NCBI GenBank assembly: GCA_964347265.1
Contig: CAYFXV010000001.1
Location: forward strand, 14,397-78,396
Direction: 5' to 3'
DNA length: 64,000 bases
Source: an uncultured archaeon
GTDB taxonomy: Archaea > Aenigmatarchaeota > Aenigmatarchaeia > Aenigmatarchaeales > Aenigmatarchaeaceae
Shown piece by piece: positions 3,544 to 55,841 of the stretch; within the stretch, counting starts at the first letter, position 1; each line of letters begins with the position of its first letter. A model generated the notes under the pieces. It searched no databases and had not been told where the DNA came from. It saw only the letters and a list, made by a program, of their open reading frames with translations. A program made the translations under genes and the position numbers.

Positions 3544-4695
3544 ATGCTCTATAAAAACCTTAATTTAAATCTTATTAAAATTCCTAAAGTTAGGGTTGCT
3601 ACTGGTCTTTATTCTCATTGGGACTCTATAGTTAAGATTGATGAAAATATTTTGAACTGGATTAAAAAGGCTTATAAAGAAGAACCAAAAGGTGTTATAC
3701 TTAATTCTTTAGAAGAGACAGTATTTACTATAAAAGAAGCCCTCGAAAATGAAGGTAAAGAATTTTTAATATCTGAAGATGTTTATAATAGATTAGATCA
3801 GTTTTTCTTAAAAAGAGAATTTAGAATTGGTGGTAATGGATATAACATGGGAAACATGTTATTTTTATCAGAAATTATTCCTGTTGTATCTTATCCTATA
3901 AGATCTAAAAAATTAATGGAAAATTCTCCTGAGTTTAAAATTGTTTTAAAGGGTGAATTAAAGAAACCAATAGAAACAATAAGGATAACAGATCAGGATT
4001 ATGATCACATAATTATTGAACTTGAAAATTCTAGACATATTTTGTCATGGGACCCAATGACATCTCGGGGAATTTTTGATTATGAATTTTTAAAATTTGC
4101 TTCTGATCCAAAAAATATAGATATATTGATTCTTGCATATGCCCATTTGTTATTGCCTGATTATAAAAAGAAAACAGATGCAATTATAGATTTCTTAAGT
4201 GAAAAAAGGCCAAGAACTCATCTAGAGTTTGGTCTAGGTTGCGAAGAGTCTATGAAATATGCTATGGAAAAATTCTCAGAAGATAAATGTTGTGAGTCTT
4301 GGGGATTAAATGAAATAGAATGCAAAGTTTACTTAAATGCAACATCTGAAAATAAAAATGATTTAATAGAGTCTGCTCTAAATGCTATTAAAGAATACAA
4401 TATAGATAGAGTCTGTGTTCATACACCTGAATTTGTTTTTTCTATTTCTAAATATGATATAATGAAGGAGTATAGAGCTCTAATAACTGCTTGTCTTTTT
4501 GCTGCAGCAAGAACTTTTGGTGATTTAAAATTAAAAATTGCTAAATCATTGCCAACAACATATGAACCTGTTAAAGAAAAAATAGAAGAATACAATTTTT
4601 GTTTAGTACCATGTTTAATAAATAAATTCCCTAGAGTTTTAACAGGAATTGGTGATGGTTTTGCTGCTATTCAAGCTGTTAAAGCTCTAAGCTGA
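3544..4695 (+). CDS. ADP-dependent sugar kinase (ADP-glucokinase/phosphofructokinase family).
   Basis: 383 aa. All three family motifs are present: RIGGNGYNMGNML (the GG...AN region), NEIE (NxxE), and the C-terminal GIGDGFAA (GXGD catalytic motif). Confidence 0.65.
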   Translation: MLYKNLNLNLIKIPKVRVATGLYSHWDSIVKIDENILNWIKKAYKEEPKGVILNSLEETVFTIKEALENEGKEFLISEDVYNRLDQFFLKREFRIGGNGYNMGNMLFLSEIIPVVSYPIRSKKLMENSPEFKIVLKGELKKPIETIRITDQDYDHIIIELENSRHILSWDPMTSRGIFDYEFLKFASDPKNIDILILAYAHLLLPDYKKKTDAIIDFLSEKRPRTHLEFGLGCEESMKYAMEKFSEDKCCESWGLNEIECKVYLNATSENKNDLIESALNAIKEYNIDRVCVHTPEFVFSISKYDIMKEYRALITACLFAAARTFGDLKLKIAKSLPTTYEPVKEKIEEYNFCLVPCLINKFPRVLTGIGDGFAAIQAVKALS

Positions 4696-4983
4696 TTTAG
4701 CAATTTTCTTAGCCAACCTGTTTAAAGAAGCTCTTAGAATGTCTCCTTTGATGTTTTTCTTCTTTATTCTTTTCATACTAGCAGCAAACTTTGGTCTATC
4801 CATTGTTCCTTTTAACCAAGCCTCAAAATCATTCCTATCATCTCTTAAATGAAACTCTAGGCTTTCTATAGGAACTGTCTTCAGGCATTCTGAAAATTCA
4901 GAAAGATTATGAGCAATCTTTCCTGTAAAGCCTGAAGTAGTACAAAACCAAAAAGCTTTATCATTTGATACATTTTTTCCCAT
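4687..4983 (-). CDS. Hypothetical protein.
   Basis: 98-aa ORF convergent with the kinase gene. Unknown family. Confidence 0.35.
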   Translation of the reverse strand: MGKNVSNDKAFWFCTTSGFTGKIAHNLSEFSECLKTVPIESLEFHLRDDRNDFEAWLKGTMDRPKFAASMKRIKKKNIKGDILRASLNRLAKKIAKSA

Positions 4984-5122
4984 TTTATCACCATTCTATG
5001 GATTTTTTAACATTTTTCATTATATGTTTAAATACAGTTTTTAATTAAAATTTAAATATGTAGTAAACCATATACATTACGTATAAACTATAAAGGATTC
5101 TAATATTTAAAGATGATGTAGA

Positions 5123-6268
5123 ATGAAGGTACTGATGCTTGGTTGGGAATTCCCACCAGCCAAAACTGGAGGCTTAGGTACCCATTGCTATGAACTTGTT
5201 AAAAATTTAAGTAAAAGAGGCGTTAGTGTTCTACTATTAATTCCAAAAAGAACAGGGAATAAAAAACATAATATACCAAATGTAGAAATAATAGAAGTAG
5301 GTTCTGTTGCCTTAAACCCTTATAATACAACAAAACCTGATGATAAATTTGAAAAAGGTTATGGATGGAACTTCTTTGAAGAAGTTAGAGCTTTTAACAA
5401 AAGATGCGTTGAAATAGCAAAAAACAAGAAATTCGATGTTGTTCATTGTCATGATTGGATGACAATAGATGCTGGAATTAAAATTAAAAAAACAACAGGA
5501 AAACCTCTAGTTTTCACTGTTCACTCAACAGAATATGATAGAACAGCTTATATCTATCCTATGAAATTTATAATTGATATTGAGAAAGGGGGGATTCAAA
5601 AAGCAGATTTGGTTATAACAGTTAGCAAAGGTATGAAAAAACAATTAATAGAGAAATATAATGCTGAAGAGAAAAAGATTATAGTAATATATAATGGAAT
5701 AAATCCCTCTAAATATTTTGGATTGATTAAGAAAGGTAATAAAGGAATTGTCCTTTTCTTAGGAAGGCTAACAAATCAAAAAGGACCTTATTTCTTTTTA
5801 CATACAGCAAAAAAGGTTTTAGAAAAAAGGAAAGATATCATGTTCATAGTTGCTGGTCAGGGAGAACAGATGCCAGAACTAATTAGAATTGCAATTGGAT
5901 TAGGTATTATGGATAATGTTGTTTTTACTGGTTATTTAACCGAAGAAGAGCTTTTACAAGCTTATTATATGGCTGATGTTTATGTTATGCCATCAGTAGC
6001 AGAACCATTTGGAATTACAGCATTAGAGGCAATTGCTTCAGGAACTCCTGTTATTGTTTCTAAAAATGCTGGTGTTGCAGAAAAAATATTGCATTGTTTT
6101 AAAGTGGATTTCTGGGACACCCATGAAATGGCTAATAAAATAATATGCTTATTGAAATACCCCGTTCTGGGAGAATGTATGAGAAAAAATTCTTATAAGG
6201 AGATAAGAAACTTTGGATGGGATAGAGTAGCTGAACAAACAATATCAGTTTATAGGAGAGCTATATGA
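5123..6268 (+). CDS. GT-B glycosyltransferase. It is probably a small archaeal (GT5/GT4-type) glycogen synthase.
   Basis: 381 aa. N-terminal MKVLMLGWEFPPAKTGGLGTH resembles the Pyrococcus glycogen synthase N-terminus. The C-terminal E-x7-E region is PSVAEPFGITALEAIASGTPVIV. Confidence 0.6.
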   Translation: MKVLMLGWEFPPAKTGGLGTHCYELVKNLSKRGVSVLLLIPKRTGNKKHNIPNVEIIEVGSVALNPYNTTKPDDKFEKGYGWNFFEEVRAFNKRCVEIAKNKKFDVVHCHDWMTIDAGIKIKKTTGKPLVFTVHSTEYDRTAYIYPMKFIIDIEKGGIQKADLVITVSKGMKKQLIEKYNAEEKKIIVIYNGINPSKYFGLIKKGNKGIVLFLGRLTNQKGPYFFLHTAKKVLEKRKDIMFIVAGQGEQMPELIRIAIGLGIMDNVVFTGYLTEEELLQAYYMADVYVMPSVAEPFGITALEAIASGTPVIVSKNAGVAEKILHCFKVDFWDTHEMANKIICLLKYPVLGECMRKNSYKEIRNFGWDRVAEQTISVYRRAI

Positions 6269-7440
6269 CATCGCTTTGTTTTTATTTTCAGGTTCACCAA
6301 CCAATGAGATTAAATAGATTTTCTATCTTTACTAAAGGTTCTCCTTATTTTGATGAAGAAAGAAACAAAGCGTATTTAAAAAAAGTTTCAAATAAATGTT
6401 ATTTACCAACTAACAAACTTCTTTTAGATCTAATAAATGAATATGAGAAAAAATTCAAAATTGCCTTTAGCTTAACTGGAGTTTTTGTAGAGCAATGTAA
6501 AAAATATGCACCTGAAGTTTTAGAATCTTTTAAAGAATTAACCAAGACTGGAAACGTTGAGTTTTTAAATGAAACTTATTATCATTCTTTAGCAGTCTTA
6601 TTTTCTGAAAAGGAATTTAAAGAACAAATAAAACTTCATAGGAAAATGATATTAGAATTGTTTAACCAAAAACCAAAAATTTTTAGAAATACTGAAGCAA
6701 TGTATTCAAACAGTATTGCCAAACTAATTGAAAAATTAGGATATAGAGGAATAATAACAGAAGGTCATGAAAGTATTCTAGGGTGGAGATCACCTAATTA
6801 CTTGTACTATCCAAATGGTTGTAAAAAAATTTCAGCCTTATTGAGGAACTATAAATTAAGTGATGATATTGGTTTTAGGTTTTCTGCTCGATGGTGGGAA
6901 GAATATCCACTGACTGCTGATAAATATTCGATATGGTTATCAAAATGTGAAGGTCATTGTATTAATGTATTCATTGATTATGAAACATTTGGAGAACATC
7001 AATGGGAAGATACAGGAATATTTAATTTCTTAAAATACTTACCATCTGAAATTTCTAAATATCCAAGTCTTGATTTTAAAACTCCATCTGAAATTATTAA
7101 ATCATATAAACCTGTTGGAGTCATAGATGTTCCACATACAATTTCTTGGGCAGATGTCCAAAGAGATCTTTCAGCCTGGCTTGAGAATGAAATGCAAAAA
7201 CTTGCTTTTGAACAAATGGCAAAACTTGAAGAACATGTTAAGAAAAACCCAGAATTGTTGCATACATGGAGATTACTTCAAACTTCTGATCATTTTTATT
7301 ATATGTGTACTAAGTGGTTTGCTGATGGTGATGTTCACAAATATTTTAATCCTTATAATTCTCCTTATGATGCATTTATTAACTTTATGAACATTTTACA
7401 AGACCTAAGAAGAAAGTTGGGTTTAAATGAAAGTAGATGA
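6265..7440 (+). CDS. GH57-family glycoside hydrolase (alpha-amylase, 4-alpha-glucanotransferase or branching-enzyme-like).
   Basis: 391 aa. N-terminal FYFQVHQPMR matches the GH57 region-I HQP signature. It overlaps the upstream GT gene by 4 nt, which suggests an operon. Confidence 0.5.
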   Translation: MTSLCFYFQVHQPMRLNRFSIFTKGSPYFDEERNKAYLKKVSNKCYLPTNKLLLDLINEYEKKFKIAFSLTGVFVEQCKKYAPEVLESFKELTKTGNVEFLNETYYHSLAVLFSEKEFKEQIKLHRKMILELFNQKPKIFRNTEAMYSNSIAKLIEKLGYRGIITEGHESILGWRSPNYLYYPNGCKKISALLRNYKLSDDIGFRFSARWWEEYPLTADKYSIWLSKCEGHCINVFIDYETFGEHQWEDTGIFNFLKYLPSEISKYPSLDFKTPSEIIKSYKPVGVIDVPHTISWADVQRDLSAWLENEMQKLAFEQMAKLEEHVKKNPELLHTWRLLQTSDHFYYMCTKWFADGDVHKYFNPYNSPYDAFINFMNILQDLRRKLGLNESR

Positions 7441-9373
7441 TCTAAAATGGGAATATCTACCAATAGAAAATCCTGATTGGGATTATGCTAGAAACCTCTT
7501 TACTGTTCTAAAAAGACCTCAAGCAACTTGGTCTCAATCTATTTTTTCTGTAAGACATAAAAACTTAATTGCACCTAACAGAGATTATAAATTTCAAGGA
7601 TTATATGTTTTTGTTAATAAGGAGTATTGGAAATTTTTAGATGCTATATTCTTTGGAATAAAAGAATTTCATATGGAACCTAAAAAAGTAATAATTTTTC
7701 CTTGGAAATCTGTTTATCAATATTTTGGAGATGGAATCGATGTTGATGTTTCTTATTATTTATCTAGAGATATGAGAGAAGGCATAACAGCAAAAATCAT
7801 ATTTGATATAAAGAACTCTTTTTTTAAAGAACTAATAATTAAACCTTTAGTTGATATTAGGAATATTTTTTCAGATTCAAAACCAGAAAAAATTAAAACT
7901 AAAGTTAATAACAACTCTTTGACTGCATCCTTTGGAAAAAATAAAATTTCTTTTTTTGTTAATGATAGTAGTATTTTAGCTGAAAAGGAGATTTTAAATT
8001 GGAAATATAAATTGGGAAGTGGATTTAGAGAAAATACTAGCAATGGTATAAGATTTGTTTCAGAATGGGCTAGGCCTGTATTCATTGGAGAAATTCACAA
8101 AAGATTATCTGGAGATGAAAAGATTTCTTTAATAATAAACTGTAATAGAAAAAATGATGATTTCGATGAAAATGAGGAAAAATTATATGTAAATCAAATA
8201 ACTAAGAAATTTAATTGTAAAAATGAATTGTTAGCAAGAATAATCTCATTGGATAGTTTTGGTATATTAGAAAAAAATATTTTAATACCAGAAGCCGGAG
8301 ATTTCTGGTTTAGACAAATATGGCTAAGGGATTTGTTAGAATCGTTAATTAATAATTTTCAAACTTTCATCAAATTAGATAACAAAAAAATAAATGAAAT
8401 AATAAAATGGATACTAAAACAACAAAATAGAAAAACTGGGAGATTCCCAAATTTCAAAAATAATTATAATTCTGTTGATACAAGTCTTTTATTCTTTATT
8501 TTAGCTGAAAAATACCTAAAACACTTCAATGATAAAACAATGGAAAAAAGAATTTTAGAAAGTTTTAATTTACTTTTTAAAAAATTTTCTGAAAATAAAA
8601 TAGAAAATAATGGGCCACCAGTAATTAAACATTATATGTTATACTCTATGCCATGGCATTCTTGGACAGACTCTAGAATTCCTTTCAGAGGAGATATGAT
8701 ATCTACAAGAATTCCACATGAATGGGTTAAAGAAGAGAATTTAGAAGAAATACTCAAACCATGTTTGTTACCTGAAATAAATGCAATGTTTATTAGAACT
8801 TTAAAAGTGGTGGAACTGTTAGGAAAAGATCTTGGAAATTTTTATAAAAAATCTTTAGAAAAATATAAAAAAATATTTCAAAATAATGATTTTCTATATT
8901 CTATAATTATTAACGATAAAAAAGATGCTACAGAAACTTCAATGGCATTGAATTCTGCTGTTTTGTTATATAATCATGTTTTTAATAAAAAAGATTTGGA
9001 AAAAATGTGGCCATCTGTTCAGAAATTATTAGTTAAAAGAAGTGGAAAATTGTTTGGTATTCTTTGTAGAAATATAAAAGATAGAATATATTACAACGAT
9101 TACCAATATCATGGAGCAGTTGTTTGGCCAAGAGACACTCCTTATCTCATTAGATACCTGAAAACAATTGGAAAAAATGATTTAGTAAAAGAAATTCTGG
9201 AAAGTAATTTAGAACATCAGATGAATGAATCTGGAATATTTTATTGTAATGAGTTATTTTCACTTCCTGAAGGAAAGAATCCATCCCCAACTAAAAGTGA
9301 TGGTAATCCTGTCCCAGTTAAGAACCCTATCCAATTATGGTCACATTTTTGTGATGATTATTTAAGAAGCTAA
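7427..9373 (+). CDS. Amylo-alpha-1,6-glucosidase / glycogen-debranching-enzyme-like six-hairpin glycosidase (GDE_C or GH15-like).
   Basis: 648 aa. It contains FWFRQIWLRDLLESL (a W.RD-type motif), and its size and operon context with glycogen enzymes fit. Confidence 0.45.
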   Translation: MKVDDLKWEYLPIENPDWDYARNLFTVLKRPQATWSQSIFSVRHKNLIAPNRDYKFQGLYVFVNKEYWKFLDAIFFGIKEFHMEPKKVIIFPWKSVYQYFGDGIDVDVSYYLSRDMREGITAKIIFDIKNSFFKELIIKPLVDIRNIFSDSKPEKIKTKVNNNSLTASFGKNKISFFVNDSSILAEKEILNWKYKLGSGFRENTSNGIRFVSEWARPVFIGEIHKRLSGDEKISLIINCNRKNDDFDENEEKLYVNQITKKFNCKNELLARIISLDSFGILEKNILIPEAGDFWFRQIWLRDLLESLINNFQTFIKLDNKKINEIIKWILKQQNRKTGRFPNFKNNYNSVDTSLLFFILAEKYLKHFNDKTMEKRILESFNLLFKKFSENKIENNGPPVIKHYMLYSMPWHSWTDSRIPFRGDMISTRIPHEWVKEENLEEILKPCLLPEINAMFIRTLKVVELLGKDLGNFYKKSLEKYKKIFQNNDFLYSIIINDKKDATETSMALNSAVLLYNHVFNKKDLEKMWPSVQKLLVKRSGKLFGILCRNIKDRIYYNDYQYHGAVVWPRDTPYLIRYLKTIGKNDLVKEILESNLEHQMNESGIFYCNELFSLPEGKNPSPTKSDGNPVPVKNPIQLWSHFCDDYLRS

Positions 9374-9398
9374 CTAATTAATGATATGAGGTATTGTT

Positions 9399-11189
9399 AT
9401 GAAAACCCAAGCAAATGTTTTGTTTGAAGTAGCTTTTGAGGTATGCAACAAAGTTGGAGGAATATATGCTGTTATAGAGTCAAAAGCTGCCCGAATGGTT
9501 GAATTATATAAAAATAATTACTTTGCTGTAGGACCTTATTATCCTGAAAGAGCTATTCTAGAAACCATAAAACAAAAACCTCCAAAATTTTGTGAAAAGG
9601 TTTTTTCTAGCTTAAATAAAAACGGAATTAAGTGTCATTATGGAAAGTGGATTGTAGAAGGAAAACCAAATGTCATACTAGTTGAATTTAATGATCTATT
9701 AGAAAAAGTTAATAATATAAAAACAGAATTATGGAAAAAATATAAAGTTGATTCTTGGGGAACTAAGTTTGATTTTGAAGAACCTGTTGCTTGGTCAACA
9801 GCTGCTGGAATGCTAATAGAAAAACTTTTTCCATGTTTTGAAAATAAAAATGTTGTTGCTCATTTTCATGAATGGTTATCAGGAGCAGCTTTATTATATC
9901 TAAAAGATAAAGTCCCTACTGTTTTTACCACACATGCAACAATGTTAGGAAGAACAATAGCTGGATGGGGAGAAGATTTGTATAAAGAGGTTAATGATGC
10001 AATTTATACTAATACTCCTTTAGATCCAAAAAGACCTCACAAATATGGAGTTCAAGCAAAACACCAAATGGAAAAAGCTTGCGCTGAAAATTGTACTATT
10101 TTTTCAACAACATCTGAAATAACATCCAAAGAAGCAATCTACATACTAGGAAAAATACCTGATATAATATTACCAAATGGTTTAGATATAGAAAGATTTC
10201 CTACAATGGAAGAGTTTGCTTTATTACACAGAAAATACAGAGAAAAAATCAAGCATTTTCTAAGTGCCTATTTTAATCCTTATTATGAAACAGATTTGTG
10301 GGATGCAATGGTTTTTTTCACATCTGGAAGATATGAATTCAGAAATAAAGGATATGATGTTCTAATAGAAGCTTTAGGAAAATTGAATGAAAGAATGAAA
10401 AAAGAAAAAATTAAAAAAAATATTTTTGTTTTCTTCTATGTTCCTAGAGGCGATATTAAAGATAATATTGAAATCATGGAAAGTACTCAATTATATGATG
10501 ATATGAGAGAAACCGTAGACGATGAATTGCCTTGGATAGAAGAAATGATTTTGGATTCGCTTGCAAAAGGCAAAATGCCAAAAATGAGAGTTATACTTAA
10601 AAAAGAGTTTTTAGAGGAATGTAAAAGAAAAATAGCTGCCTTTAAAAGAAAAGGCAATCCTCCTTTTTCTGCATATATTGTTGATGAAGATGATTTAATT
10701 GTAAATGCTTTTAAGGAAAACAGGCTCTTGAATAGAATTGATGATAAAGTTAAAGTAATATTTTATCCTTCTTATTTATCAACAACAGACAGATTATTAG
10801 GATTAAACTATGAACAAGCTGTTCAAGGTTCTCATTTAGGCGTGTTTCCTTCATATTATGAGCCTTGGGGATATACCCCCCTTGAGTGTGCTGCAAATGG
10901 TGTTTTGTCTATAACTTCTGATTTTGCTGGCTTTGGAATATTTATTAAACAGAATTCTGATCAAAGTAAAAACCCTGGAATAGGGGTTTTAGAAAGAGAT
11001 AGCAAAAGTCGTGAAGAAGTTATTGAAAAATTATATGAAATGTTATGGAACATTGTTATTATGTCTAGAAAAGAAAGAATACCTAAGAAAGCTCAAGCAA
11101 AAGACTTAGCTTCACTAGCTGATTGGAAAATATTAATTAAAAATTATGTTCAAGCACATAACATGGCTTTAGAAAGATTTAAGAAATAA
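9399..11189 (+). CDS. Glycogen synthase, GT3 (eukaryote-type) family.
   Basis: 596 aa. N-terminal LFEVAFEVCNKVGGIYAVIESKA closely matches the fungal/animal glycogen synthase N-terminus (LFE.A.EV.N.VGGIY.V..SKA). HFHEWLSGAALLYLK matches the HFHEW block. Confidence 0.7.
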   Translation: MKTQANVLFEVAFEVCNKVGGIYAVIESKAARMVELYKNNYFAVGPYYPERAILETIKQKPPKFCEKVFSSLNKNGIKCHYGKWIVEGKPNVILVEFNDLLEKVNNIKTELWKKYKVDSWGTKFDFEEPVAWSTAAGMLIEKLFPCFENKNVVAHFHEWLSGAALLYLKDKVPTVFTTHATMLGRTIAGWGEDLYKEVNDAIYTNTPLDPKRPHKYGVQAKHQMEKACAENCTIFSTTSEITSKEAIYILGKIPDIILPNGLDIERFPTMEEFALLHRKYREKIKHFLSAYFNPYYETDLWDAMVFFTSGRYEFRNKGYDVLIEALGKLNERMKKEKIKKNIFVFFYVPRGDIKDNIEIMESTQLYDDMRETVDDELPWIEEMILDSLAKGKMPKMRVILKKEFLEECKRKIAAFKRKGNPPFSAYIVDEDDLIVNAFKENRLLNRIDDKVKVIFYPSYLSTTDRLLGLNYEQAVQGSHLGVFPSYYEPWGYTPLECAANGVLSITSDFAGFGIFIKQNSDQSKNPGIGVLERDSKSREEVIEKLYEMLWNIVIMSRKERIPKKAQAKDLASLADWKILIKNYVQAHNMALERFKK

Positions 11190-11195
11190 AAATTC

Positions 11196-11591
11196 TCAAG
11201 CTCTCATATCAGGAAGTTCCGGTAATCGAACACTTAAAGATCTAGTAGGTATTCTATTCATTATCATTCTGTTTAGGTTTTTAATAGTTATTATTTCTTT
11301 TAATCTCCTACTGGTTTTAAATGGAACAGCATGATATACTCTTCTAGGTTTTTCATTATCCAGATGTCCTTTTTTTGAACTAACATAACCTTTTTCTTCT
11401 AAAGTGTGTAATAATGGATAAATTTCAGAGGGACTAAAAAGAACTCCATACTTTTCTCTAAAATCGGTAAGAAGCTTATAACCATGAGTGGGTTCTTTCA
11501 ATATATTTCTTAAAAATATTTCTTCCATATTGGCCTTCAAATCTTTTCTAACTAATTGTTTTATTGTTTCCATTCTCGATATTGTTTCCAT
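11196..11591 (-). CDS. PadR-family transcriptional regulator.
   Basis: 131 aa. THGYKLLTDF...YPLLHTLEEKGYV is a PadR wHTH signature. Confidence 0.65.
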   Translation of the reverse strand: METISRMETIKQLVRKDLKANMEEIFLRNILKEPTHGYKLLTDFREKYGVLFSPSEIYPLLHTLEEKGYVSSKKGHLDNEKPRRVYHAVPFKTSRRLKEIITIKNLNRMIMNRIPTRSLSVRLPELPDMRA

Positions 11592-11679
11592 ATTTTGTCA
11601 CCAATTAATAGTCATAATACTATTATGGAATAAATTGTAGAAAAAGAAAATTTACCCTTACGGCAGTAAAAAATACTTA

Positions 11680-12114
11680 TTAGTATTTTTTCAAATGTCC
11701 ATGAATATACTTCTCAAATATTGTAAGAAATACTAATTTATCTCTTCCAGTATTAATAACTCTATGATACTTGTTAGGGAGAACTGTAACCAAATCTCCT
11801 TTTTTAACATTAATCTTCTTCTTATCAACAATTATATATCCTCTACCTTTCAAAAAAATATAAACTTCTTCAGCATTGTGTTTGTGTCCCCTAGTCATTT
11901 TAAATTCAGAATTGACTTTTCCAGGATATAGAAAATTCATACAAACCATAAGTCTTTTCAAACCAGTTTTTTTAACAGGCAAGTCAATTAAAACTTCGTT
12001 AATATCGTTTTTATGACCTTTAATGTTTTTGTAGATATTTTTACCTTTTTCGATCGCGTCTTTAACTTTCATTTTTAATGTCTTACCTTTGAACTTATTG
12101 ATGTTAAATTTCAT
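11680..12114 (-). CDS. Cupin-domain protein, probably a cupin-type glucose-6-phosphate isomerase (cPGI).
   Basis: 144 aa. MTRGHKHNAEEVYIFLKG matches the cPGI signature T.GH.H....E.Y. It sits beside the TIM and FBPA/P genes. Confidence 0.5.
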   Translation of the reverse strand: MKFNINKFKGKTLKMKVKDAIEKGKNIYKNIKGHKNDINEVLIDLPVKKTGLKRLMVCMNFLYPGKVNSEFKMTRGHKHNAEEVYIFLKGRGYIIVDKKKINVKKGDLVTVLPNKYHRVINTGRDKLVFLTIFEKYIHGHLKKY

Positions 12115-12779
12115 TTCATCCCCATTATTAATTCTTCCATAGCTTTTTCAACATTTCCTGCTTTGACTACACCAGAAGCTAATATAACTCCTTTTGTTCC
12201 AAGTTCAATTGCTTTTTTAACATCTTCTCTTGTTTTAATCCCTGCTCCGCAAAGAACATAGGTTCTTGGTGAAATTTTCTTAACATCATTAACAGATTTT
12301 TTTATTATTTCTGGTTTAGCAGTTGAAACAGAAACATCACCTCCAATTAATTCTGGAGGTTCAATTGCAATAAAATCTGGTTTAAATTCTGCTATTTTTT
12401 TTACTTCATTATTATCTTTAGCACAAACAATCGACACTAATTCATATTCTTCACATAAGTCAACACATTTCTTAATATCTTCATGCGGAATCCTTCTTTC
12501 AGAATGATTTATTATAGAACCGACTCCGCCTAATTCCTTTACTTCTTTAGGAAGCAAAGCTCCTGTATGTGCACCTGGTTCATAAGGATCTAGATGTTGA
12601 GAAATAGTTGAAGTAATTTTGGCAACTTCATTTAACAAAGGAGTAGGCGGTGCAATTAAAATAGTTACATTATATTTATTAGACAACTCTTTAGCAACTT
12701 CTGCAAACTTTATAGGCTTTTCTCCAAGAACTTGTTCATACTCTTTCAAATTTATTATTAATATAGGAAGTTTCATCAT
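12111..12779 (-). CDS. tpiA: Triosephosphate isomerase (archaeal short type).
   Basis: 222 aa. It has the INHSERR motif, the GAGIKT phosphate-binding region and typical archaeal TIM length. Confidence 0.85.
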   Translation of the reverse strand: MMKLPILIINLKEYEQVLGEKPIKFAEVAKELSNKYNVTILIAPPTPLLNEVAKITSTISQHLDPYEPGAHTGALLPKEVKELGGVGSIINHSERRIPHEDIKKCVDLCEEYELVSIVCAKDNNEVKKIAEFKPDFIAIEPPELIGGDVSVSTAKPEIIKKSVNDVKKISPRTYVLCGAGIKTREDVKKAIELGTKGVILASGVVKAGNVEKAMEELIMGMK

Positions 12780-13870
12780 ATATCCTGGAATCTATTTTTT
12801 AGTTTTTCCTTTACTGCAGGTAAGGTTGTGTATTCCATTTCATCTGCACCTAACCTATGTGGTTCGAATGGTCCTTGTCTTCTTAGAATATCTGCAATTT
12901 TTAATGCTTCTTGTCTAGCTTTGTCAAATGATTTATCCTTAAGCATGTCCCTTGATGTACCTAACATTCCATTGGCTAATTGAAAACCCAATGCCATAAC
13001 TCTTGGCGGTCCATCAAATCTTGAGGGCGTAGCATCTTCAACAGCCACAGGCATTAAAGGACCGTGATGACTTCCTCTCATCCAACCAGCAACAATCCAT
13101 GGATGTGCAAATCCTTCTAAAACTTCTCCAACTGCTGGCAAACCATGTTGCGCTCTTACAAACATAACTGGATCATCTTTTCCAACATATTTTCCTGCAA
13201 TTAAACTTAATCTACTTGTAGATGTGGAAACTGCATACAATTTGTCTGAAGTTCTGTAAACATGTTTTATAACATATCTTCCAGGTTGTCCAATTAATGC
13301 TAACAAATCATAAATCTCTTCAGGACATTTTAATTCAACTTTTTTATTTTCTATAACATCATGAACCTCGAATGTAAATCCTCCATGCATATGAGGATCA
13401 ATAACTAGACCTGCTGTTGAGAATGGGTCTGCAAACATTTTGTATAATGGAATATTCCATGCTCCTGGCTCTGTTTTATCTGCCATAAAAATAATAACTG
13501 GTTCTGATTTTCTTTCTTCGAATTCCAGTTCTGCAACACCTGGTCCCATTCCTTTTAGATTCCCTGAGAAAGTATCTTTTAATAAATCTTGACCAGCTCC
13601 ATAAAGTTTTAGTTCTTTAGCTTTTTCTGTGCATTTTTTAAAAGTATTCCAAGCCATAGCATGCACATCTTTATTATCAACACCATGTTGATGAGTCATT
13701 ATTAGTTGTAAATCATCTCCACATCCTGTAACATAAAAATCTATTAAAAAACCTTTGTTTTTCTCGTCTTGAAGAATGTTTCTTGCCATTTCAAGAATTT
13801 CTGGATGACTTGAAGAATGTCCAACGTATCCTCCTATGTCAGCTTTGATAACACTTAGCGTAATTTTCAT
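12776..13870 (-). CDS. fbp: Bifunctional fructose-1,6-bisphosphate aldolase/phosphatase (FBPase class V).
   Basis: 364 aa. N-terminal MKITLSVIKADIGGYVGHSSSHPE...DDLQLIMTHQHG is highly characteristic of archaeal FBPA/P. A TATA-like TTTATATTA lies about 25-35 nt upstream on the minus strand. Confidence 0.9.
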   Translation of the reverse strand: MKITLSVIKADIGGYVGHSSSHPEILEMARNILQDEKNKGFLIDFYVTGCGDDLQLIMTHQHGVDNKDVHAMAWNTFKKCTEKAKELKLYGAGQDLLKDTFSGNLKGMGPGVAELEFEERKSEPVIIFMADKTEPGAWNIPLYKMFADPFSTAGLVIDPHMHGGFTFEVHDVIENKKVELKCPEEIYDLLALIGQPGRYVIKHVYRTSDKLYAVSTSTSRLSLIAGKYVGKDDPVMFVRAQHGLPAVGEVLEGFAHPWIVAGWMRGSHHGPLMPVAVEDATPSRFDGPPRVMALGFQLANGMLGTSRDMLKDKSFDKARQEALKIADILRRQGPFEPHRLGADEMEYTTLPAVKEKLKNRFQDI

Positions 13871-16071: not shown

Positions 16072-17124
16072 TTATTTCATTTTAAAATTTAATATTTCAT
16101 CTGGAGTTAATGCTTTGTTATAAATTCTAAATGAATCTATTATTCCATTAAAAGCCTCTCCAGCACTTGAAGGTATAGCACCTATACCAAAATCATTTGT
16201 CATATCCATTACATAATTATATGAACCGGTTTCAACAGACTTTCCATTTCTGTATATTATCCAATTTCCTGTTATGGTTTCGTATGTCATAACAAAATGT
16301 GTCCAAATATCATAACCCCAACCACTCGACCATACAGACATAGCTGACCAAGTTGTTCCATCACCTAAATAACAATACATAGTTGTGGAACCAGAAAAGA
16401 AATAACATGTACTAAAATATCTAGAAAGGAAAGGTCGTTGCATACTACCTTTTTCTCTCATATTAAACCAGAATTCTATTGTAAAACCATCTGGAAAATT
16501 CCCAAATTTATTTATTGCTACATAATCATCTATTCCATCAAATTCTAAAGCCTTACCAAATTTACCATTAACCCATTTGGGACATTCAGAAGTAGGGGGG
16601 TCTGAACAAATAGTAGTATAATCATATAATGTTCCATCATTTTCATATCCAGATTTATCATGTGCAATTGTTCCTCTACCTTCATCAAAATCTAAAGCTA
16701 AAAGAGCAGAATTATGTAAAAGAGATTCTACTCTCTGAACAATTTGTAAACTTGGATTAGATATTTTTAAGTCATAATCTCCTATACTTATTCCTAATAT
16801 ATCAACTGTTATAGTTCCTATTTCTCCTTTTCTTATAGTTTCAGGTGTCATGTTAAATTCAAGAGGTTCATCATCCAAGAAAACATTTAAACTGTCATTA
16901 ACTATTACTCCGCTTCCACAATTTTTTATATAAATATTATTTTTATGGATTGAATCTACTATCATACAAGTAGAGAGAATCTCTCTTGTTCTTGTTGTTC
17001 TTTCAGTTCCAGATTCTGTTAATTCTTTTACTGTCCCAAAAGTAAATAACCAAAAAAGGGTTGTTAGGAATATTAAAATTAACAAGACTAATAGTAATGT
17101 TACAATCGCTGAAAGACCACGCAT
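16072..17124 (-). CDS. Type IV pilin-like protein with a LamG/concanavalin-like lectin domain.
   Basis: 350 aa. N-terminal MRG/LSAIVTLLLVLLILIFL resembles an archaeal class III (prepilin) signal peptide. The C-terminal region (DGIDDYVAINKFGNFPDGFTIEFWFN...) is LamG-like. Confidence 0.5.
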   Translation of the reverse strand: MRGLSAIVTLLLVLLILIFLTTLFWLFTFGTVKELTESGTERTTRTREILSTCMIVDSIHKNNIYIKNCGSGVIVNDSLNVFLDDEPLEFNMTPETIRKGEIGTITVDILGISIGDYDLKISNPSLQIVQRVESLLHNSALLALDFDEGRGTIAHDKSGYENDGTLYDYTTICSDPPTSECPKWVNGKFGKALEFDGIDDYVAINKFGNFPDGFTIEFWFNMREKGSMQRPFLSRYFSTCYFFSGSTTMYCYLGDGTTWSAMSVWSSGWGYDIWTHFVMTYETITGNWIIYRNGKSVETGSYNYVMDMTNDFGIGAIPSSAGEAFNGIIDSFRIYNKALTPDEILNFKMK

Positions 17125-27394: not shown

Positions 27395-27462
27395 TCTCGA
27401 GAAATAAAAAGAAAAAGAAAAAAGGGGTAGCTGATTTCTTCAAACTATTCTATTAAGAATAG
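27395..27462 (-). terminator. Putative terminator of the S-layer-like gene: a hairpin overlapping the stop codon followed by T-tracts.
   Basis: Inverted repeat CTATTCT-atta-AGAATAG at 27445..27462 spans the stop. On the transcribed strand it is followed by CCCCTTTTTCTTTTTCTTTTT. Confidence 0.4.
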
Positions 27463-30239
27463 CTTGGAGATGCTACTGTTCCCGTAACAGTTACTTCAGC
27501 ACCTGCTTTTTGTGTGTCTGTTGCTCCTGGGAATCCAGTTTGGACAATTCTAGCTGCTAAGTCTGTATCTCCTGCTTCCCAACCGGCTATCAATAGAGCT
27601 GTCTTACCTGTTGCGAATTTGTCTGCAACAAGTTTTATCAAACCTGCATTCTCAGGTATTCCTGATGCAGCTCCACATGTATAGTCAGTATGACCCATGA
27701 CTTCAGCTGCTAGCTTGTTAATACAAGGTCCACCAACTATGACTAAATCATAGTTTGATTTGTCTGAGCTTGTTACTTCGGTATCAAGTTTAACAACATC
27801 TGATGTAATTGGTAATACAACATCTGTTGTTATTACGCCTCCAACTCCACCACTTGTTATTACACCTGTTGGAGTCAACACATAAACATTTCCATATGTG
27901 AACACATCTGGATAGCTTATTGTTGCTGAACCTCCAAGGTTTGAAGTCAAGTGATCTGATAGAGTACCGTAAGTTGTCATACCCTTGTATTGTGTTGATG
28001 TTCCTAAGAGCGGAACGTCTGCATAAGCGCTGTCATCTGAATAAAGTGAGGTAGCTATGCTTACTTTGTTGTTTGTACTATCCCATGATACTGGTAGATA
28101 CAACCAATTATGTGTTTGTCCGCCTTGTTGTGCTTCTTCAACTAAGATAAAACCTGTACCATCATACCAAGCACTTGTACTTGTTCCTAGTTTAACTGTG
28201 TAGTTCATAGCAGCACTAGTTCTTCCAACTCTTACTACATAATCAATGTGGTTCTTTGCAAATGTTCCACTTCCATAAGCTCCGTCTTCAACTGGTTCTC
28301 CAATTGCTGTTTCATTAGTCCAAGTTCCTGCTGTAGGACCATATGTAGCAACTGTTGTTGTATTGTCAGCATTTCTAACAAGTCTTATACCTGCAAATCC
28401 TAGTTGTGGATAAATCCAGGTTCCTGCGGTCATTGCACCTGAAGAATAGTTTGTATAGAAATACAAACCACCTTGACCTGTTGTTATTAACTTTGGTGCA
28501 AGGAAAGAGTATTCTCTACCAAGAGGTCCTGGTGTAGTAAAATCTGTGTATGCTGTTCCTGCAATATATCCATCTCCATTTAGGTCAACATTGATAGTTT
28601 TAGATGTATTGCTTATAAGGTAAACTCTATAAATGTTTCCATCAACTATCAAATTTGCTATGGCTCCATTTGAAGTTTGGTTACCTGTTGCTGTAATTGA
28701 ATTTCCTGACTCATCTGTAAATGTAAATTCACCAGTTGCTGCTGTATAAGCTGTAAATACCATTGTGTGGGAGAATCCTCCTTTCTGTATCACGAAAAAG
28801 TCTTGATCAACTGCGCTAATGTTTGCTCCCTCATCAAATACAACATCTCTCCAATCGTTTTCAGTGCCTGATGCTGTTACGGGTGCTGATGCCCATCTCC
28901 ATGTTACTCCGTCTGATGAATAGACTGAGAACATTTGTTCTTCAGCATCTGCAGCATTCTTGTATTTTAAGAACATGTTGTATCCAGAAGGATTGAATGT
29001 TATTGATTGTCTGTTTGCTGCATCTGTAAAATCTGGAATAATACTGTTGAATTTTATGTCAAAGGTTGATGCAAAGGAATCTGCCACTTTATCTCCTGCA
29101 GATAACCACTTATCTAAAGTTGGAGTATAGGTTAAAGAGAATACGGACCAACCACCTGATACACTTGAAGTCATTCCTGATACTAATTCAGATACGACTG
29201 ATGTACCTTTTGTTACTGTTCCTGCAGAACTTACTTTAACTTTGTCTGCGCCTATTGCTAATGTTGCATAATCTGCTGCTCCTGTCTTACCTTGGAAGAC
29301 TTTTATTGCAGCAATTTGTGTTCCATCAGACAAAGTTTTGGTTTCTCCTGCCTTTAATGTAAATGATTCACCATTTACATCCCCAATGGCAGAATAATAT
29401 GTTGATGTTCCTATAGTTTGTGCAGCAACTCCTGTCAAAGTAACTGTATAGTCTTTTCCTTCAGATGTTATTGTTTGTGGTGCTCCTGTTTCTACAGTAA
29501 CTAAATTCTTACCTCCAAGTAAGGTCATAGTTGAGATTGTATCAGTTGAACTACCATATGTGGCATCTGATATAACGAAATCTTTTCCTAAAATACTTAT
29601 AGTTGTACCTTGAATTACAGCCTGCAATAGTGTATTACTGGTAACACCTGATAAAGAGACTGGTGTTGAAAATGTTAGTTTGTATGTATAAAGTGGATAA
29701 GATGCTGGAACTTTAAAGGAAATTCTTGGCGTATTTTCAGTTGTAGGTCTTTCAAATTTTATTTGTGCGCCATTGCTACCTAAATCAGTCTCACCCAATA
29801 AATACAAATACTGTTTATATTGGTAAGCTCCACCAGATGCTGATGAATAAGTTTTGGTTCCTAACAAAGATGGTATATCTGAAGTTGTTATAATTCCCTT
29901 AACATTTTGCGGGTTTGTATAAGGTGTTAAAAATATACCAGATGTTTCTATTTTTGCTCCACCTGTAACACTTTCTCCTGCAATTGTTGTTGTTACATCT
30001 GTGGTTGTCTTAGCATTTGCTGCCATATTAACAGCTACATCAACAGCACCTGCAACATCAGCTGGTGCGGCTCTTGCCCCGATTACAAACAGTGGAAAAC
30101 TAACTGTTGAATCTGTTACTGTTATCATATCTGATATTTTTCCTAATTCTGTTACAGTAGATGCTAACACTGGACTCATTAATGACATTCCTGTCATAAG
30201 TGCTGAACCTGCTATCGCAGCCAATTTTTTAAATTGCAT
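27453..30239 (-). CDS. Large secreted Thr/Ser/Gly-rich surface protein, an S-layer protein candidate.
   Basis: 928 aa with signal peptide MQFKKLAAIAGSALMTGMSLMSPVLAS and low-complexity T/S/G-rich beta-type sequence. It has a strong SD (GGAGG) and a GC-rich leader. The internal + ORF 30001..30264 is spurious. Confidence 0.5.
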   Translation of the reverse strand: MQFKKLAAIAGSALMTGMSLMSPVLASTVTELGKISDMITVTDSTVSFPLFVIGARAAPADVAGAVDVAVNMAANAKTTTDVTTTIAGESVTGGAKIETSGIFLTPYTNPQNVKGIITTSDIPSLLGTKTYSSASGGAYQYKQYLYLLGETDLGSNGAQIKFERPTTENTPRISFKVPASYPLYTYKLTFSTPVSLSGVTSNTLLQAVIQGTTISILGKDFVISDATYGSSTDTISTMTLLGGKNLVTVETGAPQTITSEGKDYTVTLTGVAAQTIGTSTYYSAIGDVNGESFTLKAGETKTLSDGTQIAAIKVFQGKTGAADYATLAIGADKVKVSSAGTVTKGTSVVSELVSGMTSSVSGGWSVFSLTYTPTLDKWLSAGDKVADSFASTFDIKFNSIIPDFTDAANRQSITFNPSGYNMFLKYKNAADAEEQMFSVYSSDGVTWRWASAPVTASGTENDWRDVVFDEGANISAVDQDFFVIQKGGFSHTMVFTAYTAATGEFTFTDESGNSITATGNQTSNGAIANLIVDGNIYRVYLISNTSKTINVDLNGDGYIAGTAYTDFTTPGPLGREYSFLAPKLITTGQGGLYFYTNYSSGAMTAGTWIYPQLGFAGIRLVRNADNTTTVATYGPTAGTWTNETAIGEPVEDGAYGSGTFAKNHIDYVVRVGRTSAAMNYTVKLGTSTSAWYDGTGFILVEEAQQGGQTHNWLYLPVSWDSTNNKVSIATSLYSDDSAYADVPLLGTSTQYKGMTTYGTLSDHLTSNLGGSATISYPDVFTYGNVYVLTPTGVITSGGVGGVITTDVVLPITSDVVKLDTEVTSSDKSNYDLVIVGGPCINKLAAEVMGHTDYTCGAASGIPENAGLIKLVADKFATGKTALLIAGWEAGDTDLAARIVQTGFPGATDTQKAGAEVTVTGTVASPSYS

Positions 30240-41689: not shown

Positions 41690-42952
41690 TTATTGTTTTG
41701 CTATAGGTGCATTGTGGATAAGTAAGTCATTTTCACCAAAGTAATTATGAGCTTCAGTCTCTATATTATAAACATAACCTGTATATGCGTTTATTTTATT
41801 TGAAACTAGAGAAACTAAAACTGCTTCTTCATTTAAAGATGGGAATACTTTATGATTCCATGTAAACCAGTTACCATTATAAAAATAAATATCCCAAAAT
41901 CCAAAATGAGATGTTTTTTCTTTAACTTTTGTTTCAACTTTTTTACCATCTTTATATCCTATTACTGTATCACCAACTTTCAAATCTTCAATTCTTTTAA
42001 ATCCTTCAGGCGTTAAAACCTTAAAACCCTCTATTAAACAACCTCCACCGCCTCCAAAAGGTGTGGGAGTTGTAGGTTTTTCTCCTTTTACTGTTATAGG
42101 AATATGGTTGTAAAGAGTGTATTTATAACCAATATCCATATTTAAAGATTTAATACTCATTATGGTTTGTGGAGCAGTGGAAAATTCACAAATTGTTGGA
42201 ACAGCCCTACCTTTTATAAATTTCAAATCTTTATTTAATGTAAAGGTCCCTCCACTCGACGTATAATTGGGACAACTACTTATAATTATATTGTTTGGAG
42301 CAGTGAATTTTATATCTAAATTATCAAAAAAACCATCTCCCCTATTATTATAATTAATATACATATCATATCCTGATAGATCCGCTATAAATGGCTGTGA
42401 TTCAGAAAAAGTTAAATAAACATTTAATGGGCCTTTTGCAAAAGTAGATTGAATAGGAATATCTTGAAGTGTTCCTTCTACTTCTCTTACAACATATTCA
42501 GATTCTGATAAAACTACTATATCTTGAAAAACAGAACTGGTCGCAGAATATGCTACAAAAAACTTTATTATACATCGTCTATCTATCTCTGATTCTTCTG
42601 ATTTCCATCTCCAATGCCACATACAAGTTTGGTTTGCTTTTAATGTTCCAGATGCATCAGTACCACAATCGTCTTTTAGAAATTTATTAGTAGCAACATC
42701 AAAACAAGGATAATCATAAACTATTAAATTAACATTGTTTAAATCATAAAGTTGCTTATTCCTTAATTCAAAAAAAACTTGAACTTCTCTTCCTCCTCTA
42801 ATTTCTGAAGAAGTTGTTTCTGCTTTTATGTAAAGGTCTGGACTTCCTGGATCAATTAAAAAAGTCTCTGGTTGTGGTAGTGATGGAAATGGAGGTAGAA
42901 TCGAACATAAAGAAATCAGAACAATGGGAAGTAATAAAAGTAAATATTTCAT
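41690..42952 (-). CDS. Secreted protein with a C-terminal Hint domain (hedgehog/intein-like, bacterial-intein-like type).
   Basis: 420 aa with a signal peptide. A Gly5 linker is followed by CLIEGFKVLTPEGFKRIEDLKVGDTVIG (intein block A), KTSHFGF (block B, TxxH), YNIETEAHNYFG (block F) and NDLLIHN (block G, terminal HN). Only 6 non-nucleophilic residues (APIAKQ) follow. Confidence 0.7.
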   Translation of the reverse strand: MKYLLLLLPIVLISLCSILPPFPSLPQPETFLIDPGSPDLYIKAETTSSEIRGGREVQVFFELRNKQLYDLNNVNLIVYDYPCFDVATNKFLKDDCGTDASGTLKANQTCMWHWRWKSEESEIDRRCIIKFFVAYSATSSVFQDIVVLSESEYVVREVEGTLQDIPIQSTFAKGPLNVYLTFSESQPFIADLSGYDMYINYNNRGDGFFDNLDIKFTAPNNIIISSCPNYTSSGGTFTLNKDLKFIKGRAVPTICEFSTAPQTIMSIKSLNMDIGYKYTLYNHIPITVKGEKPTTPTPFGGGGGCLIEGFKVLTPEGFKRIEDLKVGDTVIGYKDGKKVETKVKEKTSHFGFWDIYFYNGNWFTWNHKVFPSLNEEAVLVSLVSNKINAYTGYVYNIETEAHNYFGENDLLIHNAPIAKQ

Positions 42953-48415: not shown

Positions 48416-49171
48416 ATGATTGACAAACTTTTAAGAGCTTATTTAATTGAGAAAAAACCTTGGTATGGAATTGTATTAGGTTTTCTTTTTGCAAGCTTAG
48501 GAATAATATTTGCTTTTCTTATTTTTAGAACAGAACCATCATTTCCTGCAGTTTTTTTAACAACTTTAGCAGCAGCACCTTTAATTGTTAAATTAATAAA
48601 AAGTGAAAGACAAAAAGAAAACATATTAAGAAGACATGAAAATATTATTGGAGTTTATTTTTATTTGTTCTTTGGAATGACCATTGCATTTGCTTTATTT
48701 AATGCTTTTTTACCAACTGAAATTTCTAGTTCTATTTTTAGTGAACAGCTAAACAAATTTTCTGCAGGTTATTTTACAGGACAATCTCAACTATTTTTTG
48801 AAATAATTTTAAATAATCTTGGCTTAGTTTTATTCTTTTTCATATTATCTTTGTTTTATGGTTCTGGTTCAATGTTTCTTTTATCTTGGAACTCGTCCAT
48901 ACTTGGAGTAATGTGGGGCAATATATTGAAGATTTCACTTTCTTTAATGGATCCACTTGTTTTTGTTCAAAATGTTTTTTTCATATTTCCTTTCTTATTA
49001 CCTGAAGTTGAGGCTTATTTCTTAGCTTCAATAGCTGGTGGTATAGTTTCTGTAAACTTGGATAATAAGAAAAAATTAGAAACTGCAATGAATGATTCTT
49101 TGATGTTTTTAGTATTATCTATAGTGTTGATAATAATTGCTGGTGGTATAGAAACTATTTTGATTGCATAA
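48416..49171 (+). CDS. Polytopic membrane protein (SpoIIM/DUF95-like).
   Basis: 251 aa with six or more TM helices. Confidence 0.35.
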   Translation: MIDKLLRAYLIEKKPWYGIVLGFLFASLGIIFAFLIFRTEPSFPAVFLTTLAAAPLIVKLIKSERQKENILRRHENIIGVYFYLFFGMTIAFALFNAFLPTEISSSIFSEQLNKFSAGYFTGQSQLFFEIILNNLGLVLFFFILSLFYGSGSMFLLSWNSSILGVMWGNILKISLSLMDPLVFVQNVFFIFPFLLPEVEAYFLASIAGGIVSVNLDNKKKLETAMNDSLMFLVLSIVLIIIAGGIETILIA

Positions 49172-52155: not shown

Positions 52156-52269
52156 TGGGCGAGGTGAGATTTGAACTCACGACCTCCAGTATTTACAGAA
52201 CGCAGCCACAAAAAATGACTAACGTCATTTTATAAGACTGGCGCTCTAACCAAACTAAGCTACCCGCCC
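52156..52269 (-). tRNA. Intron-containing tRNA. The anticodon is TAT (tRNA-Ile) if the intron is at the canonical 37/38 position.
   Basis: Reverse complement: acceptor GGGCGGG/CTCGCCC, D-arm GCTT..GAGC, anticodon stem CCAGT/ACTGG enclosing CTTATA plus a ~39-nt insert (with hairpin ATGAC-GTTA-GTCAT), T-arm GTGAG-TTCAAAT-CTCAC. Confidence 0.65.
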
Positions 52270-55397: not shown

Positions 55398-55841
55398 ATG
55401 AAAGGAATATCCACAATATTGGCAATGATATTGATTGTTATCATAGTTGTTGCTTTGATAGGATTGACTTATACTTTTGCAGTAGGACTATTTGGAACAG
55501 CAACAGCAGGAGCTACTGAACAAACAGCAGCAGTTACAGAAAGATTGCAGAAAAGTGTTGCTATAGTTGCATCAAGTTGTAGTATATCTGGAGCTAATGC
55601 TACTTATCGTTTTACACTTAAGAATACAGGAACAATGACTGTTGAAGCTGCTTCATTAAAAGCTTTTGTAGATGGAACTCTAATTCAAGGAGCATCATTT
55701 GAAGATATACCTAAAGGACAAATTGATACACAGGAAAGAGCATTTACAAATGAAACGGCATCTCAAGGAACAGCAATAACTCATACTCTAAGAATTGCAG
55801 CACCTGCAGGAGAAGTAGATTCTTCAGTAACTTGTCAATAA
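55398..55841 (+). CDS. Archaeal type IV pilin-like protein with a class III signal peptide.
   Basis: 147 aa. MKG/ISTILAMILIVIIVVALIGL is an N-terminal prepilin-like signal with a hydrophobic helix. The remainder is Thr/Ala-rich. Confidence 0.6.
   Translation: MKGISTILAMILIVIIVVALIGLTYTFAVGLFGTATAGATEQTAAVTERLQKSVAIVASSCSISGANATYRFTLKNTGTMTVEAASLKAFVDGTLIQGASFEDIPKGQIDTQERAFTNETASQGTAITHTLRIAAPAGEVDSSVTCQ

Follow-up and report, generated by a model that had tools for sequence, protein, structure and literature searches.

We analyzed a 64,000-nucleotide stretch of DNA (hereafter, the window) from an uncultured aenigmatarchaeote, positions 14,397 to 78,396 of contig CAYFXV010000001.1, and found that one gene on its reverse strand encodes a pilin-like protein carrying a nested laminin G-like (LamG) domain. 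The product of this gene (hereafter, the target) is 100% identical to the NCBI entry 'hypothetical protein GTN40_00580' from a metagenome-assembled genome (MAG) of a Candidatus Aenigmarchaeota archaeon. We consider it probable that the target is a minor, adhesin-bearing modular archaeal type IV pilin, and that its nested LamG domain binds glycans. This reading draws on the architecture of the protein, the homology of its two modules, a pilus assembly machine encoded in the same window and the pattern found across the protein family, as these emerge from sequence comparison and structure prediction. Coordinates of all features are collected in Table 1.

The target begins with MRGLSAIVTLLLVLLILIFL, which the first-pass annotation of this DNA had likened to the class III prepilin signals of pilins encoded at 55.4-57.3 kb. 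Its start, MRG/LSAIV (a slash marks a putative processing site throughout), is of the class III type and is followed by about 25 hydrophobic residues: in MRG/LSAIVTLLLVLLILIFLTTLFWLF a charged residue precedes a G/A at position -1, positions +1 and +2 are small or hydrophobic, and a hydrophobic stretch follows. Since position 17124 is the first start codon past an in-frame stop, the leader can be no longer than Met-Arg-Gly. We searched all six frames of the window, which is AT-rich (GC content about 0.27-0.37), with a FlaFind-like regular expression that requires a charged residue and G/A, then hydrophobic residues and a long hydrophobic run. Only four open reading frames (ORFs) match, namely pilins 55398, 56394 and 56840 and the target, indicating that this N-terminus is no chance product of an AT-rich genome and bearing out the likeness first noticed. 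The N-termini of relatives are overwhelmingly of the form M-[KRHQ]-[GA]-[IVLA], with mostly K, R, H or Q at position -2 and G or A at -1, and the occasional longer leaders (MPKA, MRKG, MQKG) retain the same processing site. The putative site of the target, RG/LS, also resembles characterised archaeal pilin processing sites, which include RALS, RAVS and KGQV (PMC4371748).

An AlphaFold2 model of the target, built from a 19-sequence family alignment (mean predicted local distance difference test score [pLDDT] 79, predicted template modelling score 0.70), contains one long helix spanning residues 2-46, with pLDDT of 81-94 across residues 1-30, and then the strands of a beta-sandwich at residues 54-136 (pLDDT about 90). 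The helix aligns with those of the window pilins and of the solved archaeal pilins 8fk7, 8q30 and Iho670; the pilin in PDB entry 8q30 we take to be AapB of Sulfolobus acidocaldarius. The first 140 residues of the target align end to end with the three pilins of the pilus locus at 22-28% identity, and a tblastn search of the window with this pilin module matched pilin 55398 (55398-55730, E=9e-8). With an 11-sequence family profile, hhalign matched window pilin 56394 at a probability of 97.6% (E=3e-12), and a search of every PDB sequence with this profile returned four matches, all of them subunits of archaeal type IV filaments (8fk7, E=1.9e-4; 8q30, E=2.8e-4; then the Ignicoccus Iho670 filament and its core). 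The NCBIfam UpsA model was matched by nine of the 11 family modules (best E=2.2e-10) and Pfam Pilin_N by five (best E=5.9e-6). We conclude from profiles and predicted fold that the globular domain is homologous to the beta-sandwich domains of pilins and archaellins. The archaeal pilins UpsA/UpsB, 8q30 and 8fk7 share with the target a class-III-type signal, a hydrophobic helix and a beta-sandwich, a likeness that is detectable in sequence; they differ from it in being 130-145 aa long with no extra domain, and the target scores 17 bits against an UpsA equivalog cut-off of 130. Within the family, C53, N68, C69 and G70 are invariant. The six cysteines of the target fall into three local pairs (53/69, 173/181 and 240/251) and there are two N-glycosylation sequons, features which would fit an extracellular protein.

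The second module is recognized by Pfam Laminin_G_3 (PF13385), which matches residues 196-344 over model positions 1-150/151 with 78.9 bits against a gathering cut-off of 27.6 (E=5.9e-22), and DGIDDYVAINKFGNFPDGFTIEFWF, a stretch singled out in the first-pass annotation, falls within this domain. In the AlphaFold2 model residues 140-349 are all-beta, with low confidence at 225-248, and the predicted fold is the two-sheet jelly-roll of LamG and concanavalin A (ConA)-like proteins. A PF13385 search and a structure prediction, both proposed in that annotation as checks, have thus returned the LamG/ConA-like domain it had suspected, and what changes is its extent and its setting. The non-pilin part is some 207 aa (residues ~138-344) rather than a C-terminal region of ~250 aa, and the LamG domain does not directly follow the N-terminal helix: the beta-sandwich of a proper pilin module, which had not been proposed, lies between the two (residues ~47-137). 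Nor is the lectin domain C-terminal to the pilin. Relatives of about 145 aa that have no LamG domain share a clade-specific C-terminal tail with the LamG-bearing relatives nearest to them, namely ..LKMK in the clade of the target, ..NFRII or ..NFRLI in the P0016 clade and ..LIELT or ..LGELT in the P0017 clade. Because the tail is shared with LamG-less forms, the last strand (predicted at residues 345-349) belongs to the pilin module, and LamG has been inserted before it. This strand would be expected to pack against the pilin sandwich.

A word-indexed search found 51 relatives, of which the closest, about 28, share the full-length architecture; those with source names are Aenigmarchaeota. An exhaustive phmmer search of 1.84 billion cluster representatives, with the pilin module of 140 aa as query, gave 360 proteins at E<=1e-3, of which 113 reach E<=1e-10. 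Among the best 166 of these 360, about two thirds are long enough to hold a LamG-sized domain: 94 have 301-400 aa and likely one such added domain, and 25 have 501-620 aa and likely two LamG-type domains, as in P0002, P0005 and P0008-P0010; another 20 have at most 160 aa and likely consist of the pilin module only. Species-representative genomes hold two to four paralogs each, and all 18 loci found in them are in archaeal MAGs. The pilin module of the family is a distinct subfamily, with the motif SSCM...NCG, and occurs also as short proteins of about 145 aa. Two relatives carry a further, Cys-rich domain of the SUEL-type galactose/rhamnose lectins (Gal_Lectin, PF02140), inserted in P0019 inside the N-terminal frame of LamG and in P0027, in similar form, inside the pilin sandwich. 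The extra Gal_Lectin domain fits a carbohydrate-binding role.

In related genomes LamG can be present or absent at the same locus. LamG-less versions of about 145 aa fill the same syntenic slots as LamG-bearing genes: P0052 (146 aa; reverse-strand reading ..AMVLHSHKD, then a stop) lies between the same phosphoglucomutase and aldehyde dehydrogenase genes as the target, and P0094 (144 aa) and P0087 (142 aa) take the place of the paralog P0016, flanked by a tRNA_anti-codon-domain gene and eIF-2beta. We considered the possibility that these short forms are assembly artefacts, as the first two were found on contigs of 616 and 644 bp, and rejected it: others are on longer contigs, and the junction has a linker of its own. 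P0087 comes from an 8.5-kb contig whose gene order is that of L001, and P0067 (148 aa, LamG-less) is on a 146-kb contig of GCA_012975005.1, an assembly that also holds P0016. P0016 and the target share the GTN40 locus-tag prefix. It therefore seems that members with LamG and members lacking it are encoded in one genome.

Where LamG is present, its sequence does not follow that of its scaffold. The target is 54-82% identical to its closest relatives in the pilin module and 43-71% in the LamG frame regions, as compared with 15-24% in the LamG core (206-322), for which the mean pairwise identity is 19% vs 49-58% in the flanking parts. Its syntenic ortholog P0006 has flanking genes that are mostly 75-97% identical (58% for the phosphoglucomutase/phosphomannomutase gene), and at the nucleotide level the two genes align over nt 46-611 (77%) and 972-1053 (82%), with nothing aligning between. 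Two paralogs of the GTN36 MAG, P0007 and P0024, share 42% identity in the pilin module and 80% in LamG, suggesting duplication or exchange of a LamG cassette within one genome; in many other pairs the relation is reversed, the pilin module being more alike than LamG. Over 688 pairs, pilin and LamG identity are correlated with r=0.29. These comparisons point to LamG cassettes having been replaced or exchanged between pilin scaffolds, and not to fast point divergence alone. The N-terminal frame of LamG behaves differently in one comparison: in the target (residues 140-205; window 16510-16713) it is 79-88% identical in nucleotides to that of the paralog P0016 (10417-10624 of L001), with the rest at the background of 45-50%, which could reflect either gene conversion or strong purifying selection with codon bias. 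A diversity-generating retroelement seems an unlikely source of the variability, as the core differs by insertions, deletions and non-homologous stretches and not by adenine-specific substitutions. No further LamG copies or silent cassettes were found in the window by tblastn.

From these features we infer the following course of events, with cleavage, filament incorporation and ligand each putative. The prepilin would be inserted into the membrane, and a prepilin peptidase of the PibD/FlaK type, encoded elsewhere in the genome, would remove the three-residue leader after Gly3. The PilB-type ATPase and PilC-type platform proteins encoded at 58.2-61.9 kb would then incorporate the target at low frequency into filaments consisting mainly of short pilins. 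The LamG domain would project from the surface or tip of the filament and bind glycans, for example those of a host cell envelope, or a substrate, and its specificity would be diversified through the variable core and through cassette exchange. The minor status, the tip position suggested in the first-pass annotation and the binding of host or substrate glycans are borrowed by analogy from two characterized systems, PilC of Streptococcus sanguinis (PMC9934059) and TafC of Haloarcula hispanica (PMC11821415), to which the target can be compared in turn.

S. sanguinis PilC (PDB 7OA7/7OA8) is a glycan-binding minor pilin, thought to be located at the pilus tip, with a helix, an Ig-like and a ConA-like domain in that order (PMC9934059). 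The target has the same order of parts. PilC differs in being bacterial, with a prepilin-type N-methylation motif, a gene inside the pil locus and a C-terminal lectin module, whereas the target combines an archaeal pilin scaffold, a stand-alone gene, a nested LamG and membership in a multi-paralog family with exchanged LamG domains; beyond the fold there is no sequence homology between them. TafC, from the Tat-fimbriae of H. hispanica, has about 370 aa; its N-terminal part is Ig-like and of pilin type, and its laminin-G-like domain is modelled as facing outward at the filament end (PMC11821415). It is an archaeal filament subunit combining a pilin-type part with LamG, and its model gives a weak match to the target (NF052521, E=2.5e-5), but TafC is Tat-exported and assembled by donor-strand exchange and is not a type IV pilin. 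Membership of the target in the TafC family was rejected, the score being 23.6 bits against a cut-off of 410 and the target having no twin-arginine signal.

Lectin-bearing modular pilins are thus a kind already known in bacteria. In the survey of bacterial modular pilins by Raynaud et al. 2021, PF13385, there combined with IPR012902, is among the 15 commonest added modules (PMC8179133), and in Saccharibacteria, which are ultrasmall episymbionts, the lectin-like minor pilins PilX1/PilX2 are proposed to bind glycans of the host wall (PMC11623550). As proposed for the target, a carbohydrate-binding module is displayed on a pilin, and Saccharibacteria are ecologically parallel to DPANN archaea. 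A bacterial protein combining PF07963 with PF13385 (P0035) also turned up in our searches as a distant LamG homologue. By the definition of Raynaud and Pelicic, a pilin module joined to a module not specific to pilus biology, the target is a modular pilin, in this case one whose extra module is nested. The bacterial surveys are based on the bacterial N-terminal motif and do not cover archaea, and the globular domain of bacterial pilins is an alpha-beta roll, in contrast to the archaeal beta-sandwich type of the target. We found no description of an archaeal pilin-LamG fusion in the literature searched, and a census of archaeal type IV pili contains no mention of LamG, lectin or concanavalin. 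What is new here is the archaeal beta-sandwich scaffold, the nested lectin, the dispersed multi-paralog organisation, the presence and absence of LamG at the same locus and the apparent exchange of LamG between scaffolds.

A number of observations weigh against a minor pilin. The leader has just three residues, and class III signals are found also on archaeal proteins other than pilus subunits, among them the sugar-binding proteins of the Sulfolobus bindosome (PMC4371748). The target alone has no match to Pilin_N (PF07790) or TIGR02537 (arch_flag_Nterm) at E<=1 and matches UpsA at E=0.004-0.03, so its membership in the pilin superfamily is a matter of profile and transitive evidence. The modest identity to the locus pilins given above makes co-assembly with them uncertain. 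A scan for GxGD-type/A24 motifs, a screen of transmembrane counts and searches of every multi-pass membrane ORF with Pfam and NCBIfam models brought up no gene for a prepilin peptidase in the window, the candidates proving to be DUF63, VTT, CDP-alcohol transferase, SpoIIM-like or VIT proteins or unassigned. Pilus genes lie within 3-9 kb of family members in about two of the roughly 20 contexts examined (a paralog in L019 is 2.8 kb from a pilus operon and one in L004 is 8.6 kb from a T2SSE ATPase), the family being usually away from such genes. No sugar-binding residues are assignable in the target, whose presumed binding core (206-322) is hypervariable and in part predicted with low confidence. 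In addition, when residues 1-140 were modelled separately (pLDDT 75) and searched with Foldseek, the six best matches, all weak (E 2.5e-3 to 1.5e-2), were soluble domains of S. acidocaldarius FlaG/FlaF, which are membrane-anchored parts of the archaellum and not filament subunits.

This fold match, the bindosome signals and the distance from pilus operons are also what speaks for the alternative that survives best, in which the target is a surface lectin with a pilin-like anchor and no long pilus, either a 'pseudopilin', cleaved or not, standing within or beneath the S-layer in the manner of FlaF/FlaG, or a component of a short bindosome-like assembly for sugar capture close to the membrane. 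We regard this as rather unlikely. The matches of the sequence profile are to pilins that truly build filaments (AapB-type 8q30, 8fk7) and to UpsA, a Pfam search of the target gave no solute-binding-protein domain, and no archaellum genes (FlaH/FlaX) were seen beside the ATPase. The location of the target could also be read in favor of sugar capture, as the target and its ortholog lie in a conserved neighborhood of sugar-metabolism genes (phosphoglucomutase/phosphomannomutase, aldehyde dehydrogenase, fructose-bisphosphate aldolase/phosphatase, glycogen synthase and glycoside hydrolase family 57, GH57). However, paralogs are found among unrelated, mostly housekeeping genes (MCM, eIF-2beta, tRNA synthetases), so this neighborhood probably reflects just inherited gene order. 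That the target is a stand-alone gene away from the pilus locus had been stated at first reading and holds up, both in its surroundings of carbohydrate-metabolism and housekeeping genes, 38 kb from the pilus operon, and in those of its homologues. Such separation is not uncommon, since pilin genes in archaea are often apart from assembly genes, as in the case of Haloferax pilA1-6 and Methanococcus EpdE (PMC4371748).

It is improbable, in our estimate, that the target is instead the major subunit of a filament of its own, in which every subunit would carry a LamG domain and form a lectin-coated fibre. The globular domains of archaeal type IV filaments do face outward, and subunits can be large, the size of the target being comparable to that of the 303-aa subunit of the Iho670 adhesion filament of Ignicoccus, which is among the PDB matches of the profile; moreover, the family could build its own filament, given that short proteins of its SSCM...NCG pilin subfamily are present in the same genome (P0067). 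Nevertheless, the diverged paralogs, several to a genome and with different LamG domains, and presence or absence of LamG at one locus fit accessory subunits better, and bacterial modular lectin pilins are minor subunits (PMC9934059). Finally, it is very improbable that the target is an enzyme of the ConA-like 'glucanase' superfamily, secreted or anchored, that degrades glycans, and glucanase activity was rejected, as the GH16 catalytic motif ExDxxE and any GH16 Pfam match are absent from the target, the match is to PF13385 and to no glycoside hydrolase family, the core that would house an active site is the least conserved part, and the structural match of the LamG part is to AbnA domain 4, a domain separate from GH43 that was solved with a ligand bound (per the entry titles). 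We presume that AbnA domain 4 is the sugar-binding and not the catalytic part of that protein.

The reading of the target as a lectin-bearing minor pilin is of interest because of the organisms involved. Aenigmarchaeota are DPANN archaea, and how DPANN archaea find and hold their hosts is largely unknown. LamG proteins are candidate adhesins in DPANN genomes (PMC7414124), so far without a delivery mechanism. A pilin-borne LamG domain would supply delivery through display on a type IV pilus, as shown for S. sanguinis PilC and proposed for Saccharibacteria. The family, whose pilin module is found in at least 360 sequence clusters, extends the modular-pilin principle to archaea, and adds to it a nested arrangement as well as signs that cassettes were exchanged. 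Taken together, the variable LamG core, the presence of several paralogs in a genome, the LamG-less versions and LamG exchange suggest changeable adhesin specificities on a constant pilin scaffold. Tentatively, and with more doubt than confidence, we propose a broader view in which Aenigmarchaeota, and probably other DPANN archaea, maintain a dispersed pilin-scaffold family whose LamG cassettes are inserted, exchanged and deleted, resulting in a changeable, recombination-driven adhesin repertoire on type IV pili that sets or shifts host or substrate specificity. If true, archaea would have a counterpart to adhesin and antigenic variation systems, and DPANN host recognition would gain a molecular handle.

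Table 1. Features of the target gene and of the pilus operon in window coordinates, and positions of LamG-less versions in other loci.
Feature	Position	Strand	Remarks
Whole target gene, pilin-like protein with nested LamG	16072..17124	-	350 aa; stop codon 16072-16074 included; from ORF list
Three-residue leader M-R-G, putative prepilin-peptidase site RG/LS	17116..17124	-	Direct reading and pattern search
Residues 4-46, hydrophobic N-terminal alpha-helix (alpha1), presumed polymerisation helix	16987..17115	-	AlphaFold2 and alignments
Residues 47-137, beta-sandwich globular part of pilin module	16714..16986	-	Invariant C53 and C69; AlphaFold2, profile matches
Residues 138-344, LamG/ConA-like jelly-roll	16093..16713	-	
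Residues 206-322, hypervariable LamG core, presumed ligand-binding part	16159..16509	-	Family identity, nucleotide alignment
Residues 345-350 (LNFKMK), terminal beta-strand of pilin module, not LamG	16075..16092	-	Tails of LamG-less relatives and AlphaFold2
Three pilins of ~140 aa, presumed major pilins	55398-55841, 56394-56834, 56840-57256	+	MKG/IS N-termini
Two small pilin-like ORFs	57280-57789, 57799-58215	+	MKA/Q and MKG/Q N-termini
PilB/ArlI-type ATPase	58212-60029	+	T2SSE E=4.9e-31; FlaI model E=5.9e-121 but below cut-off
Two PilC-type platform proteins	60038-60919, 60924-61874	+	T2SSF E~1e-15 each
DUF7287 pilin-like ORF	61874-62278	+	DUF7287 match
LamG-less versions	L006 144-584; L007 100-534; L026 8001-8447; L029 785-1213		Same slots, same C-terminal tail

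A complete type IV pilus operon lies at 55.4-62.3 kb, about 38 kb from the target, and its genes at 57280-62278 would supply the presumed assembly machine for the target. Its pilins match UpsA with E values between 1e-9 and 8e-12; TIGR02537 is above its cut-off for pilin 56394, and there are weak matches to Pilin_N, Arch_flagellin and CARDB. Between the first and second pilin genes lies a 172-aa coiled-coil-like ORF (55879-56397, + strand) without a signal sequence and with weak, scattered Pfam matches. The two small pilin-like ORFs downstream of the third pilin may be minor pilins. Their processing sites are of a type with Gln at +1, unlike the G/I or G/L sites of the other pilins, and an ortholog of the second of them adjoins the ATPase in L019.

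The immediate neighbors of the target are a convergent aldehyde dehydrogenase gene, whose stop codon abuts it, and a divergent phosphoglucomutase/phosphomannomutase gene, separated from it by 31 bp. Further along, at 3544-13870, there is a glycogen/gluconeogenesis cluster that includes an ADP-dependent sugar kinase, a GT4/starch-synthase-like gene, GH57 and glycogen synthase among further genes; it also holds a cupin-type glucose-6-phosphate isomerase, triosephosphate isomerase (TIM) and the fructose-bisphosphate aldolase/phosphatase, and its gene order is kept in a related MAG (L002). Elsewhere in the window, a 928-aa protein (27453-30239, - strand) with an S-layer outer domain (PF05124, E=2.8e-15) is probably the S-layer protein, and is encoded where the GC content of the window peaks (0.37). 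A 445-aa protein (49164-50501, + strand) that weakly matches GH16 (E=4.9e-5) and dockerin (E=3.5e-4) is probably another surface-exposed protein of ConA-like fold. On the reverse strand, a 420-aa ORF (41690-42952) has a weak C-terminal match to an intein splicing domain (E=1.1e-5, below cut-off), and adjoining it is a 774-aa ORF (43922-46246) that matches no Pfam model and is predicted to have six membrane segments. The window also encodes seven tRNAs, one of which spans 114 nt (52156-52269, - strand) and probably contains an intron.

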